From Eledone cirrhosa (lineage: Eukaryota): a DNA stretch of 64,000 nucleotides. Below are positions 4,963-48,597 of the stretch, piece after piece (the first letter of the stretch is position 1; every line of letters starts with the position of its first letter). The notes under the pieces were generated by a model. That model was not told the DNA's origin. It was given only the letters and a program-made list of their open reading frames with translations, and ran no database searches. The translations under genes were made by a program, and so were the position numbers. The stretch spans positions 27,776,001 through 27,840,000 of the forward strand of contig OZ024763.1 of NCBI GenBank assembly GCA_964016885.1, read 5' to 3'.

Positions 4963-5130
4963 ATAGGAACCAGTAAGACCCCGACAGCTGAGCTCAAGCC
5001 GTTTCGACGAAACGGCTTGAGCTCAGCTGTCGGGGTCTTACTGGTTCCTATTACATACTCTACTACCTCAAGTATTGAGTACTTTGGTGCGTTATGGTCC
5101 ACCTGGTTCCTTACCACATTTCCTTCGTTA
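4963..5130. repeat. Perfect 89-bp palindrome (4963-5051) of an HHR 3' half, plus tail
   Basis: Centre at 5007; each strand reads GAAAC-GGCU-UGAGCUC-AGCU-GUC (stem III plus GUC cleavage triplet). Confidence 0.8.
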
Positions 5131-5157
5131 TATATATATATATATATATATATATAG

Positions 5158-5312
5158 TAATAAATGGAGAATATATCACTATAGCATCATAATTTATTGA
5201 TGCTAAGTTATACTATGCCTTCTTCAGACAAAATACATTATTTGATGTATAAAAATGTTATGAACATAACTCTGTTGATTACATATTAACAAAGTCTATG
5301 ACTCATGGTTTT
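5158..5312 (-). mobile_element. Degenerate pLTR fragment related to the PLE
   Basis: tatgccttcttcagacaaaataca matches pLTR tatgccttcctcagacaaaataca; flanked by (TA)n. Confidence 0.55.
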
Positions 5313-5334
5313 TATATATATATAATTATAAAAC

Positions 5335-5451
5335 GACAGGGAGCTGGACTGGTGTCATTAATTCCTTAAAGTTTTATTATACTATGAACGGGTTCAGTAT
5401 GAATCCGGTGACATCATCAGGTATTCCGAAATTTATCCAACAAAGGAATAT
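5335..5451 (-). mobile_element. Second copy of the 48050-48170 HHR element, HHR internally deleted
   Basis: Shares gggttcagtatgaatccggtgacatcatcaggtattc; the GAAA segment is lost between two TCA repeats. Confidence 0.65.
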
Positions 5452-5957
5452 AATTGTTTCTACTTTTGGCACAAGGCCAGCAATTACCCCCAGTACATTA
5501 CTGGTACTTTATTTTATCGACCCCTTAAGGATGAAAGGCAAAGTTAACCTCGGCGGGATTTGAACTCAGTCCGTAAAGGGACGTAACTGTGCTGCAAAGC
5601 ATGGCGTCCGACCCTCTACCGATACTGCCAATCCACCGCCCTGGTGGATTGGCAGTATCGGTAGAGGGTCGGACGCCATGCTTTCTAGCATAGTTACGTC
5701 CCTTTATGGTTTGAGTTCAAATCCTGCCGAGGTTAACTTTGCCTTTCATCCTTACGGGGTCGATACAATAAAGTACCAGTAATCTATTGGGTTATTGCTG
5801 GCTTTGTGCCTAACGTAGAAACAATTATATTCCTTTGTTGGATAAATTTTGGAATTTAATAAACAAAGGAATATAATTGTTTCTACTTTAGGCACAAGGC
5901 CAGCAAATACCCAGTGCATTACTGGTACTTTATTTTATCTACCCCGTAAGGATGAAA
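5452..5957. mobile_element. SINE cluster: 5452-5640 (-), 5643-5826 (+), 5877-5957 (-, truncated)
   Basis: Family match; the third copy is flanked by a duplicated aaaggaatataat. Confidence 0.88.
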
Positions 5958-7194
5958 AGGAATATAATAAAAGACAAACCTGTACTTCGGTTTCGTACCT
6001 TGTTTGTTTACATATATATACACCGTGTAAATCTAGTCGAAGTACATTTTTACATCTTCATATATATAAAAGTGCATTTTGCTATTATAAACACCATAAA
6101 TCTATATCTATTTCCCACCTTTATATATATATATATATATATATATATATATATATATATATATATACCGAAGTGAGTACAGTCAACGTGTGTCTGTATC
6201 AGAGTGTGTGTGTGAGTGTCTATGTAGGTATGTGTGTATGTGTGTGTGTGTGTGTGTCTGTGTAAGTATAAATCGGAATTAAAAGCTGAAATCTTAGATG
6301 TTGCACTCGTTTACTGATCATCCAGTGTACTTCACCTTCTCTGACTCTCTATACACACACACACACACACACACACGTATATATATATATACACACATTA
6401 TTTATATATATATATAATAAAAAATAAACATATATATATGTGTGTGTATATGTATATATGTATACATATATATATTATATATAGAGGGGAGTATGCATAT
6501 GCATGTATATATATATATATATATATTCTTTTATTTTGTATATATCAATAATATATATATATATATGTATAAATATATATATATATATATATATATATAT
6601 ATATATATATATATATATATTTATACATATATATATATATATATTATTGATATATACATAATAAAAATAAACATATATATATATGTGTGTTTGTATATAC
6701 ATATATATGTATATATTACGTATATATAGAGGTATGTATGCATATATATATATATAAATATATACACAAATGTTTATTTTATTGTAAAAAATTACAATAT
6801 TTTACAAAATAAATAAAAGAACACGAATATATATATATATATATATATATATATATATATATATATATATATATATATATATATATATATAAACACGTGA
6901 TCGATAAACACTTTGCCAAAGTCATATAGTTTTCCTCTGATCAGAAATCGATAGCAGACACTTCAAACAACATTAGTATATATTGAACACTACACTTCCC
7001 AATTGACCTGAGCAAATTATTGATCGTAACCGTTTCACGTCCATCTTAAATACTTTTAATCCGAGGTTGGTGCCGTGCGGTGTGGTGTGGTGTATTGGTT
7101 GTAGTACAGAGGTGTGGGGTATTTTGTCTCCTGCTTTTTTTTTTTATTACGACGACTTCTTCACGTTTATATTTGTCTCTTTGTATTTACAAAT

Positions 7195-7812
7195 ATTTAT
7201 TATTATTTTTATTATTATTATTTTCTTTGAGTCTCAGTCATTGATGTTATTTAAAGTTTGTTCAAATGAATATCAAGTCGCTACCTCCAGCCTCAGATAT
7301 TCAGGATGTATCGGAGAGTTCTTGCTGTACCCAGCAAGCATGCTTTTTGAAGTGTTAAAAAAGAAAAACGGAGCTGGACTAATGTTCGTTAACCATCCTT
7401 GAAAAAAAAAAACTCTTTGAGATAGTACCTAGTGCTCCTATGACAATCGAGACCCCCTTGATCACATGACAGTCTCGAATCATTTTTAGTTCCCACTTTA
7501 AAATTCTGGCATCGGTTAATTTTTTCCTTTTCCTTTTCTTGAACTCTTGTGTCAAAGGGGGCAGGTTTATCTACAATCAGTCACGATCTTTTTTCCTTGT
7601 CCAAAAGCCACCAGGTCAGACCTATTGTGTTCTAATTTCTTGTCCGTCTGTCTCCTGAAATCCCATAGCACCTTCACCTGATCGTTTTCTATCACCGACT
7701 CTGGCTTATCCTCATACCACTTCTCAGAATGTGGTAAATTGTTTAGTTTGCATAGATGCCAGTGGGTCACCTTTCCTATCATGTCATGTCTCCAGCCTTT
7801 ATAGTTACTATA
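7195..7812 (-). mobile_element. Dong/R4-clade non-LTR retrotransposon 3' fragment (restriction-like endonuclease)
   Basis: RHD..HW..KWYEDKPESVIEN..VLWDF..QTD..HNRSD, IVIGALGTI and terminal LQKACLLGTARTLRYIL*; frameshifted; (TAA)n tail. Confidence 0.85.
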
Positions 7813-7891
7813 TTTCTTCTTCTTCTTCTTCTTCTTCTTCTTCTTCTTCTTCTTCTTCTTCTTTTTCTTTTTCTTTTTCTTCTTCTTCTTA

Positions 7892-46118: not shown

Positions 46119-46275
46119 ATATTTAATATAGAACTGGCTTCTACAGGGCTAGAACTGTTTCATTCGGGAGATCTCATCAGGGGTTCCTGATGATTTCTCC
46201 CGAATGAAACAGTTCTAGTCCTGTAGAAGCCATTTCTATATTAAATATTTATACTTTGCTATGTATTGAGTACCT
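46119..46275. mobile_element. Palindromic HHR element (HHR cores on both strands)
   Basis: Inverted arms 46119-46181 / 46186-46248. Plus strand reads GGUUC-CUGAUGA-UUUCucccGAAU-GAAA-CAGuucuagucCUG-UA^GAAGCC. A truncated relative lies at ~3364-3436. Confidence 0.75.
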
Positions 46276-46385
46276 TACATACTGTGGTTACACACATACA
46301 GACACACACACACATATATATATATATATATATATATATATATATATATATATATATATATATATATATATATATATATATGCAG

Positions 46386-46783
46386 AGGTTATATTTCATT
46401 TGTTTGGATTCAACAAGCTTAAACATTTTTATAACTGATATAAAGCACTCAACAAATTAGTGGAGTAAATACACAATATATTAATAAATGGAAACTATAT
46501 TTATAATATTATACATATTTCAAGGACAACCAAGGCAAATTATTGTGCGCTTTCATCAGATAAAATCCAGATTTGTTTTATAAATAAATATTGACATACC
46601 CGGAAAAAAGACAACCTTAACGGAAGCTCTAACCGTTAAGGTTGTCTTTTTTCCGGGTATGTCAATATTTATTTGTAAAACAAATCTGTATTTTATCTGA
46701 TGAAAGCGCACAATAATTTGCCTTGGTTGTCCTTGAAATATGTATATTATTATAAATATAGTTTCCATTTATTAATATATTGT
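46386..46783. mobile_element. Palindromic solo pLTR related to the full-length PLE, HHR core in both arms
   Basis: ~150-bp arms 46473-46623 / 46633-46783. CTGATGA at 46697-46703 with GAAA at 46735-46738, mirrored at 46553-46559. Colinear similarity to pLTR 25851-26085. Confidence 0.8.
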
Positions 46784-47107
46784 ATGTATATATATATATA
46801 TATGAGGGTGTATGTATTTGCTTACGCATACATACATTATATATACAAACAACACTCACACACACACATATATATATATATATATATATATATATTATAT
46901 ATATATATATTATATATATATATATATATATATTATATATATATATATTATATATATATATATATATATTATATATATATATATACATATATATATATAT
47001 ATATATACATATATATATATATATATACATATATATATATATATATATATATATAATATATATATATATATAATATATATATATATATATAATATATATA
47101 TATATAT

Positions 47108-47660
47108 AATTGTTTCTACTTTAGGCACAAGGCCAGCAAATTACCCCAGTGCATTACTGGTACTTTATTTTACTGACCCCGTAAGGATGAAAGGCAAAGT
47201 CAACCTTGGCGGGATTTGAACTCAGATCGTAAAGGGACGTAACTATATATATATATATATATATATAATATATATATATATATATATATATAATATATAT
47301 ATATTATATATATATATATAATATATATATATATATAATATATAATATATATATATATATATAATATATATAATATATATATATATATATAATATATATA
47401 ATATATATATATATAATATATATATATATATATATATATATATATATATATATATACATAAACATTCCGGATTGTTTTCGTAAAACCAGGAGCAAGCAGG
47501 AGAAAGGTCTCAACACTCGTAGTTTATAGTTACGATGGAGATTGAGTATAATAATTGTTTCTACTTTTGGCACAAGGCCAGCATTTATCCCAATGTATTA
47601 CTGGTACTTTATTTTATCGACCCCCGTAAGTATGAAAGGCAAAGTTAACCTCGGCGGGAT
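47108..47660 (-). mobile_element. Two truncated SINE copies (47108-47245, 47553-47660)
   Basis: Family match. Confidence 0.85.
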
Positions 47661-47899
47661 AATGGCGTCAAGAAAACCACGGGTGAACCATTGAAATAAT
47701 AATAATGAAAACACGATTTATGTAACATAATATATATATGTATATATATTATGTTATTCTTCACCCATTTATTCTTGAAAGGGTCGTGGGTTATATATAT
47801 ATGTATATATATACATATATATATATATAAGCCACGACCCTCTCAAGAATAAGTGGGCGAAGAAAAACATAATATATATACATATATATATATTATTTA

Positions 47900-48307
47900 G
47901 GTTTGTTGGTTCACAACTGGATAGAACTGGTCATTCCGTATGGTCAACCTCGTTGTAATATTATGGAGAGCACTCAACGTAATGCAACTCACCCGTCTTT
48001 GTTTGTGTAGTTGGTGGTGCGAGTACGGAGTTTATTATTAGAAAAATAACAGGAGGTTGCACTGGTGTAATTCCTTAAAAGGTTTATTATACTTTGATCA
48101 TTTCAATGACCGGGTTCAGTATGAATCCGGTGACATCATCAGGTATTCGAAATATAACAAAGAAATATAATAGACAAAATCCATGGTGCTAAAAATCAGA
48201 GACATGAGGGCGCCCGAACATTTAGAAGCTACTAAATGTTCGGTCGCCCTCATGTCTCTGATTTTCAGCCCTATGGATTTTGTCTATTATATTCCTTTGT
48301 TATATTA
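47900..48307 (-). mobile_element. HHR-bearing PLE derivative with terminal palindrome
   Basis: HHR at 48089-48146 (AUAC-CUGAUGA..GAAA-UGAUCA-AA-GUAU; U16.1 mutated). Inverted repeat ~48152-48225 / 48232-48306. Second copy at ~5335-5450. Confidence 0.65.
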
Positions 48308-48448
48308 CATATACATATATATAGGTATGTTATAAATACAGATATATGTATGTATGTATGTATGTATGTATATTTTTATATGTATATATATGTGTGTGTG
48401 TGTGTGTGTGTGTATTTCCTTATCTCACTAGTCAGTTCTTTCGTTGAT

Positions 48449-48597
48449 ACAGATCACGCGGCTAAATTAGCGGTCGCTATTTTCTATTTGCAAAGCCCTT
48501 TTAAACTGTATGTTATTACTCTGAGGTTTATTCCTTGTTGAGTGCTTGGCTCCTCTACTGAAGGCATTCGTTGGCTTGGCTGCTGATCGAACTTCGA
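48449..48597. repeat. ~150-bp dispersed repeat, copy 2
   Basis: Near-identical to 44295-44443; ends in (TA)n. Confidence 0.8.

Follow-up and report, generated by a model that had tools for sequence, protein, structure and literature searches.

A short bulged hairpin that follows hammerhead ribozymes in Penelope-like elements (PLEs) was analysed in a 64,000-nucleotide stretch of the Eledone cirrhosa genome (assembly GCA_964016885.1, contig OZ024763.1, positions 27,776,001 to 27,840,000 of the forward strand; hereafter the window), in the rest of the genome and in related elements. The motif is real, structured and clade-wide, and it lies in fixed register to the ends of the insertions that carry it. 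It is paired, with one hairpin (HP1) behind the hammerhead and another (HP2) before the start codon, and insertions end at a fixed register 5' of each copy; both points were overlooked in the original prediction, a reading of the letters of the window that had proposed a cis-acting RNA element for recognition by the reverse transcriptase (RT) or else a promoter or processing signal. Enrichment and covariation make RT recognition the best-fitting of these options and the promoter or processing alternative less likely. Our preferred reading, which we consider probable, is that each hairpin positions the RT and that both strands of the target are primed.

The full-length element of the window and its protein

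Judged by its sequence, the full-length insertion in the window is a PLE of the Hydra clade. Its features are given below, with pLTR standing for pseudo-long terminal repeat, ORF for open reading frame, UTR for untranslated region, and A and B for the two end sites described further on.

25851..30110 (-): Penelope-like insertion of the Hydra clade in (TA)n, full-length, with a short inverted arm, 5' pLTR, ORF, 3' UTR and 3' pLTR
30062..30110 (+): inverted arm, which stops 6-7 nt short of the HP1 stem (site A), followed by (TA)n
29832..29873 (-): predicted hammerhead core of the 5' pLTR, from a pattern match
29746..29768 (-): HP1 in the 5' pLTR, from a pattern match
29658..29677 (-): HP2, about 20 nt before the ATG, with one change in its 5' arm relative to the usual form in sister copies, recognised by comparison with these
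27424..29637 (-): ORF for RT and C-terminal GIY-YIG domain, with DKT, RWR, CxCx5C, CxxC and CxH, and one in-frame TGA at 28939-28941
25996..26037 (-): predicted hammerhead core of the 3' pLTR, from a pattern match
25910..25932 (-): HP1 in the 3' pLTR, followed after 59 nt by the end of the copy at site B, 9 nt short of the expected start of the HP2 stem

The right end of the insertion, formed by the inverted arm, is an A end and the left one a B end, and HP1 and HP2 lie about 90 nt apart in this family. All motif strings cited in the original prediction were located in the window at their positions and strands; its list of sites lacked the HP1 copy at 29746-29768 (-), and the partial echo that it had noticed at 29656-29670 is real and, far from being partial, is the 3' half of a whole hairpin, HP2.

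The single ORF encodes the RT followed by a C-terminal GIY-YIG endonuclease (EN), the latter assigned by motif, as a Pfam scan gave 0 families. It has DKT in place of DKG, RWR (RWK-type) and no N-terminal GxK[FY], and DK[TS] is present in 76/80 relatives (the best 80 of 417). A CxCx5C linker and, in the EN, CxxC and CxH without CCHH contrast with the CCHH-type ENs of the same genome, in which several CCHH-type PLE families, probably Neptune-like, coexist (L409-L438). DKT, the RWK-type motif, CxCx5C, CxxC and CxH, as well as the absence of GxKF/Y, are given as marks of the Hydra clade in the available text of Craig et al. (PMC8557442), along with a size generally below 3 kb as a tendency, above which the window-family unit lies with its 3,842 nt and long 3' UTR. 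The predicted hammerhead in the pLTR and the insertion into (TA)n are both present in the window family. In a structure model of the intact sister copy L010 (pLDDT 91.5), TERT was the best match (E 2e-9), and the nearest named protein relative comes from Argonauta hians. The in-frame TGA at 28939-28941 (-) is absent from L010, and many of the best 85 copies are open over at least 736 aa; given open sister copies that are 96-99% identical, the family looks recently active. A selenocysteine insertion sequence (SECIS) was rejected as an identity for the hairpin, considering that the motif lacks the SECIS core and that the sister copy has no such TGA.

Structure and covariation of the hairpin

The motif is a bulged stem-loop composed of a 5' arm N-CUC, a variable upper stem with a free loop, two bulged nucleotides (mostly UU) on the 3' side and a 3' arm GAG-N'-RC(U). 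It had been described as a conserved stem with loops varying in length and sequence; the stem is real, whereas the presumed loop contains a second covarying stem, offset by the 2-nt bulge. Outside octopods the 3' arm reads GAGCAC, the clade-wide form, and the outer pair of the lower stem differs between groups: most animals have G-C, octopod HP1 has A-U, and variants have U-A. In full-length sister copies of the window family, HP2 carries G-C where HP1 has A-U.

Relatives were drawn from a metagenome set of 77 marine loci, obtained by a protein-alignment search (best 80 of 417 relatives). Covariation was counted by anchors and not with a covariance model, since MAFFT left the 5' arms unaligned. 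In 67 distinct metagenome hairpins, picked with no upper-stem rule, the pair above the 2-nt bulge is kept in 66 (C-G in 44, U-A in 22), with a mutual information of 0.93 against at most 0.14 in shuffles, and other bulge sizes of 0, 1, 3 and 4 nt yield the pair in 0, 1, 7 and 18 of the 67 hairpins, respectively. A tree of 51 RTs, 34-62% identical to the reference, came from the quick form of the tree search, comprised relatives only and has one octopod row (L081) labelled from a wrongly picked hairpin. On it this pair undergoes 8-9 changes, of which well-supported branches require at least 2-3, and one row has it unpaired. Pairs 1-3 are likewise kept in 43, 44 and 39 of 53 E. cirrhosa copies, decayed ones included.

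Searches of Rfam gave nothing at gathering score among the best 150 of 463 matches of the window, where the e-value scan was swamped by microsatellites, and 0 matches for 12 motif loci. A footprint of a miniature inverted-repeat transposable element, of the form TA-CTC..GAG-TA, was ruled out by the oriented, covarying 3' arm, which is mostly GAGTG, GAGCG or GAGCA.

Abundance and distribution

The 3.0-Gb genome holds 51,486 matches to the motif against 1,449 for the reversed-pattern control, and 28,518 cases of a hammerhead core with TACTC 35-65 nt on against 1,976. The HP2 pattern matched 3,440 times (control 121) and the HP1..HP2 pattern 387 times (control 22), and the order hammerhead, HP1, HP2, ATG repeats in other E. 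cirrhosa families. These totals are copy numbers and not independent events, the independence of the evidence resting on the comparisons of families and on the tree. For the window itself, a block-shuffle control was spoiled by (TAC)n arrays (14 observed against a mean of 15.8 after shuffling) and was replaced by the genome controls and by a refined pattern, with 7 matches against a mean of 2.05 in 100 shuffles, 1 of which reached 7.

In a position-ordered sample of 92 hits in 90 loci, from 100 listed of the 51,486 matches, a hammerhead core lies upstream of 42 hits and, as a control, downstream of 2, and a TA-type run occurs within 160 nt of 78, in 72 of these at 34-81 nt. The 38 nt located 3' of the sampled hairpins fell into 19 clusters at a threshold that no shuffle reached, the few singletons being chance or decayed copies. 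Positional enrichment behind hammerheads and covariation had been set beforehand as tests of the original prediction; the former is found in the sampled loci and in the genome totals, the latter in the metagenome hairpins, on the RT tree and among the genome copies. Linkage to the ribozyme was confirmed at six of the seven sites listed as ribozyme-linked, each of them having a full CUGANGA..GAAA core 5' of it on its own strand, while the 5056 site follows only the 3' half of one. The distance from the cleavage site had been given as about 25-65 nt; counted by eye from the inferred cleavage triplet, it is about 25-70 nt. The fragments at 44363 and 48517 are ribozyme-free as described, with zero hammerhead cores within 520 nt 5' of the hairpin in 12 copies. 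The families had been called unrelated, which proved wrong, as all of them are of Hydra-clade type and share the motif by descent and not by convergence.

Among the 54 eligible 5' UTRs of the metagenome set, 50 have at least one hairpin and 34 have both, with HP1 69-103 nt past CUGANGA and HP2 55-83 nt past HP1; a stricter count that demanded two upper pairs (two hairpins in 12/56) undercounted and was superseded by this one, which has no pairing rule. The ORF control gave 10 hits in 155,713 nt, and the reverse-strand control was near zero too. In the published Hydra consensi available from PMC8557442, the hairpin is clear by eye in 3/6 (a coral and two sea cucumber consensi, one of these three with both hairpins), and a variant is present in a copepod. 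Five 9-mers of the 3' arm had 4 hits in Hydra UTRs of the supplement, as available, and 3 elsewhere, apparently inside ORFs, although line breaks in that file may hide hits. The 30 loci with CCHH-type ENs yielded a single hairpin, located 688 nt beyond a hammerhead core, and cores were found in just 3 of these loci; with the 9-mer hits, this gives at most modest evidence that other PLE clades lack the hairpin. Viral contigs had 215 pattern hits, zero of them related, and no RNA-type sequencing run contained more than 0.06 of the sequence words.

Insertion ends at two sites

Insertions end at two sites, both joined to (TA)n, with A situated before HP1 and B before HP2. The B junctions lie 7-10 nt before HP2 in 51/68 cases (mode 9), and the A junctions lie 4-14 nt before HP1 in 37/48 cases in the largest family; in the window family the distance is 6-7 nt. 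The four resolved metagenome ends are all at most 6 nt from a stem. TA starts at -8, -7 and -6 before the stems in 22, 20 and 29 of 67 hairpins, compared with about 5 at other positions, and the UA stretch 6-8 nt before the stems could be the place where a (TA)n primer pairs. Single-arm copies ending at A occur in the genome (L324, L341) and in the metagenome set (L219, L230). The family of the 44363 and 48517 fragments had seemed to lack HP2, until a tandem copy (L349) showed it with a 7-bp upper stem and a loop of about 85 nt, 8-9 nt past the B end.

Several side observations concern these ends and the non-coding carriers. In three copies (L350 and metagenome L187 and L194) the 5' end coincides with site A or B, the outcome expected if a circle had been copied once round; this number is too small to carry weight. 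Unit-length B-to-B copies were dropped as a proof of a circular template, since most full-length copies checked run past site B. Related to the 44363/48517 family are non-coding families of about 600 nt (L390:1139-2360, L391, L392 and L393; G000 C1) that form partial tandems on (TA)n and possess HP1, a large-loop HP2 and shared upstream blocks. No complete hammerhead core was seen in this group, some members having a lone CUGAUGA, and Rfam produced no match that reached the gathering score; these families may contain a promoter or a different ribozyme. The commonest match of the two-hairpin pattern is a retrozyme-like non-coding family with hammerhead, HP1 and HP2 (L075-L080; G000 C1, around 130.88 Mb), whose copies lie about 1.3 kb apart.

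Pairing of A and B ends in inverted insertions

Forty long copies, taken from near the top of 85 protein hits with short contigs skipped, were classed by their alignment ends, since labels taken from the hairpins go wrong where these are mutated. They comprised 35 inverted two-arm insertions (31 AB, 2 AA, 0 BB and 2 unresolved) and 5 single-arm copies (3 B and 2 A), that is, A was paired with B in 31/33 resolved long inversions (binomial p 1e-7). Among 50 short inversions, which were the first 50 of 3,983 and were chosen by their centre only, with two locus pairs that look duplicated, a script assigned 45 to AB, 3 to BB and 2 to AA (p 1.5e-8); by eye, the three BB cases are AB and the two AA cases have a damaged B arm. 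Partner arms beside HP1 copies carried the HP1 of their own family in 0/35, with one spurious and one unclear hit. The arms overlap by 0-4 nt at their junctions. In 10/31 long and 18/48 short inversions, the lengths of short arms being rough, the A arm is the longer one, from which it follows that neither arm can be a copy of the other and that the A arm is no fold-back product of the B arm. Three giant inversions of 6-9 kb (L317, L342 and L346; G000 C4) have two near-full-length arms, each joining an A end with a B end.

Proposed mechanism and alternatives

According to our preferred reading, the RT-endonuclease, perhaps as a dimer in which each subunit takes one hairpin, would bind the invariant lower stem, the bulge and the 3' RCU, and would cut both strands of the (TA)n target. 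A few bases of each freed 3' end would pair with the UA stretch that precedes one hairpin, and this end would be extended toward the 5' end of the RNA, through the hammerhead and sometimes beyond one unit length, which would imply an uncleaved, tandem or circular template. The two cDNAs would then be joined head to head via short microhomology. The arm begun before HP2 would copy HP1 and the spacer, producing the one-sided 'tail', the arm begun before HP1 would copy neither, and a single successful priming would leave a single-arm copy. As HP2 would never be copied at the 3' end, the model would account for HP1 being about 15 times commoner than HP2 in the genome, and a start at the hairpin would also explain hairpin pieces without a ribozyme. 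A dimer would be a natural part of the model, and the Poseidon-clade protein, in the available text of PMC11167929, cuts and extends both strands in vitro, with two internal starts that bound the tail. A wider version, conceivable but one to which we would not yet commit, is programmed twin priming by a dimeric telomerase-like RT on two hairpins, giving one cDNA per cut strand, possibly from circular RNA; a cassette of about 100 nt would then mobilise any RNA into (TA)n, and the tail and inverted repeats of all PLE clades would originate likewise, from motif pairs particular to each clade.

Several observations weigh against positioning by the hairpins. On their own these fold weakly (-2 to -13 kcal/mol, with z below -2 in 2/11), which would make a protein partner likely. 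In the metagenome set, whose loci include near-copies, 4/54 UTRs have no hairpin and 16/54 only one, some of them being truncated or mutated, and the Hydra-1_Obim and Hydra-1_Amil consensi, as available, have no hairpin that is clear by eye. Of the 68 B junctions, 32 come from one spacer type; 10/48 A ends of the largest family lie 17-32 nt before HP1, and in L391-type families the ends lie 9-14 nt before a divergent HP2. Two long inserts (L336 and L338) are AA, and the inverted arm of the window insertion at 47895..48340 stops before the hammerhead instead of at site A. The Poseidon starts, as described in the accessible part of PMC11167929, show no strand preference and no homology to the primer. 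Finally, a ribozyme-less family keeps HP1 and yet has A ends at 3 loci against 772 read-throughs, with inverted partners in 0/39. Two of these three rare A ends are arms of A/B inversions, and their rarity implies that the hairpin alone does not force a start; HP1 may be needed for loading even though the second priming rarely succeeds, or the model may be incomplete.

The main rivals are trimming at the DNA level and fold-back with HP1 as a stop signal. By the former, which we regard as unlikely, the hairpins act in DNA, where the EN recognises them in over-long cDNA or in the donor and trims 7-9 nt away, so that the ends are resolution sites. The available text of Craig et al. (PMC8557442) ascribes the tail to EN-mediated resolution, and the Drosophila virilis EN needed the tail to cleave, as recounted in PMC11167929. 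Covariation cannot separate RNA from single-stranded DNA, and the excess of G-U-type over A-C-type oppositions is weak (27 vs 15), and this weakness of the strand asymmetry also counts against our reading. However, the ends join (TA)n directly at the UA stretch of the element, as priming predicts, HP2 tolerates an inserted 85-nt domain and G-U pairs, and the tail ends of Poseidon were mapped in vitro as RT starts in what is accessible of PMC11167929. Slightly less plausible still is a single priming at B, with the inverted arm made afterwards, when the cDNA primes itself or folds back, or on an antisense template, and with HP1 stopping this second synthesis. Self-priming on an antisense template has been proposed for these inversions in the part of PMC3846280 available, the 0-4 nt overlaps at the arm junctions would suit it, and B-only insertions are common, one family being almost without A ends. 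Against it stand the element sequence that the A arm possesses and the B arm lacks, in the numbers of long and short inversions given above, the existence of single-arm A copies, and the same register of A and B ends to the same motif.

A role of the hairpins in expression is somewhat less probable again. They would serve translation, RNA processing or transcription, for example as a site of ribosome entry on an RNA cut by the ribozyme, as one of circle ligation or, within TTGAGTG, as a DNA factor site, and the ends would lie nearby by an AT-rich match to (TA)n. This agrees with the placement of HP2 about 20-45 nt before the ATG and of HP1 about 25-70 nt past the cleavage site, with the TA-rich patches 5' of the stems and with the 3' arm, which we take to resemble NK-type homeodomain sites. 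Nevertheless, both hairpins are retained in non-coding families, the ends track the hairpins despite family differences in spacer length and sequence, many other TA patches in these UTRs are unused, and GAGCAC outside octopods indicates that no fixed DNA word is kept while the pairing is. Shared ancestry or chance alone, with no selection on structure, is very improbable and largely refuted: all carriers seem to come from one clade and the genome counts are inflated by copies, but the flanks are unalignable between families, compensatory switches recur on the tree of RTs of such divergence, and the ORF and reverse-strand controls are near zero.

Other copies and features of the window

The remaining copies of the motif in the window are as follows.

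4966..5128 (+): short inverted A/B insertion, hairpin 5056-5082, with only the 3' half of a hammerhead
21950..22205 (+): short inverted A/B insertion; its hairpin, 22145-22167, has as 3' arm GAGCAC, the clade-wide form
43721..43975 (-): insertion with one arm and a B end, hairpin 43776-43803; in full-length relatives HP2 lies 7-8 nt past this end
44363..44391 (+): HP1 of a non-coding family, no hammerhead core seen
46122..46290 (+): from the most abundant family, a short inversion with hairpin 46252-46273 whose inverted arm terminates at site A
46381..46783 (-): inverted A/B insertion, hairpin 46445-46467
47506..47541 (-): hairpin UCUC..UU-GAGA-CC directly behind a short interspersed nuclear element (SINE); the copy ends about 50 nt on in (TA)n
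47895..48340 (-): insertion with the long-loop hairpin 47970-48025, the exception mentioned above
48517..48545 (+): HP1 of the same non-coding family as 44363

Altogether, the inverted arm ends at site A in 5/6 inverted inserts of the window, which also has many short pieces of such elements in (TA)n tracts. The ribozyme-less motif placed at 47514-47548 by the original prediction is a hairpin in a different register, 47506-47541 (-), and a genome search with the 47460-47650 stretch retrieved mostly the neighbouring SINE. This SINE, presumably of octopus type, is found in many copies in the window (1313-1710, 4837, 5537-5743, 8212, 22471 and 47638-47655), some as inverted pairs, and one copy directly precedes the 47506 hairpin. 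A short inverted repeat around (TA)n at 47730-47890 adjoins the end of the 47895 insertion. The window further contains an abundant hammerhead-bearing family at 30500-30780 (-), with the hammerhead at 30602-30625, which ends in (CA)n/(TA)n and has no hairpin, and a 3.6-kb tandem array at 39138-42729 with a 69-nt (TAC)-rich unit.

Comparison with known systems

Stem-loops at the 3' ends of long interspersed nuclear elements (LINEs) as well as SINEs, such as those of UnaL2 and ZfL2, and the 3' UTR of R2 recruit the RT for target-primed reverse transcription, with non-coding partners riding along. These LINE-type stem-loops lie 5' of the start and are thereby copied into every insert. In the arrangement proposed here, copying would begin 5' of each of two hairpins, leaving the docking hairpin out of the arm that it starts; in agreement with this difference, A arms are devoid of HP1 and B ends of HP2. 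In L1 twin priming, both target strands prime on one RNA, giving an inverted 5' part, but the second priming position depends on fortuitous microhomology and the arms have no overlap, whereas in the present elements a motif fixes both positions and each arm repeats sequence of the other. Telomerase RNA and the hepadnaviral epsilon combine short primer pairing with an adjacent protein-bound stem or use a bulged stem-loop as an initiation signal; in our case there would be neither repeat addition nor protein priming. PLE RTs are the closest relatives of telomerase, and a primer-alignment patch beside a protein-bound stem bears on the origin of template boundaries.

The window family resembles the Hydra clade described in PMC8557442, as far as that text is available, in its hammerhead, (TA)n targeting, inverted arms, one-sided tail and protein motifs. 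The same text describes no hairpin pair, leaves the hairpins unremarked in its consensus file, assigns the tail to EN resolution and calls the origin of the inverted repeats and one-sided tail of PLEs undefined. The one-sided tail and the two starts were already known, while the literature searched, which left out most subscription papers, yielded neither a paper on the hairpin pair nor a mention of the duplicated motif, of its register or of the A/B rule; in PMC11167929, a source available in part, supplementary figures depict RNA folding close to the Poseidon starts, which could affect how new the motif is. The three competing ideas of EN resolution, antisense self-priming and internal initiation must each explain the A/B end-pairing rule, and an open mechanism becomes testable with a small, conserved RNA element that can be mutated and whose register to both ends is fixed. 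The motif also identifies the Hydra clade, the non-coding families that depend on it and their ends, with tens of thousands of copies in this genome.

Another close parallel is Poseidon_Ac (Frangieh et al. 2024, PMC11167929), for which the available text reports two internal end sites that bound the tail, as do the sites here, which were derived from genomic ends alone. In that system, RNA 3' of the starts is required and a dimer is predicted. The elements studied here differ from Poseidon_Ac in having two like UTR hairpins, each behind a UA stretch, with A paired with B, and their genomic junctions show a UA microhomology that the Poseidon starts, as reported there, do not.

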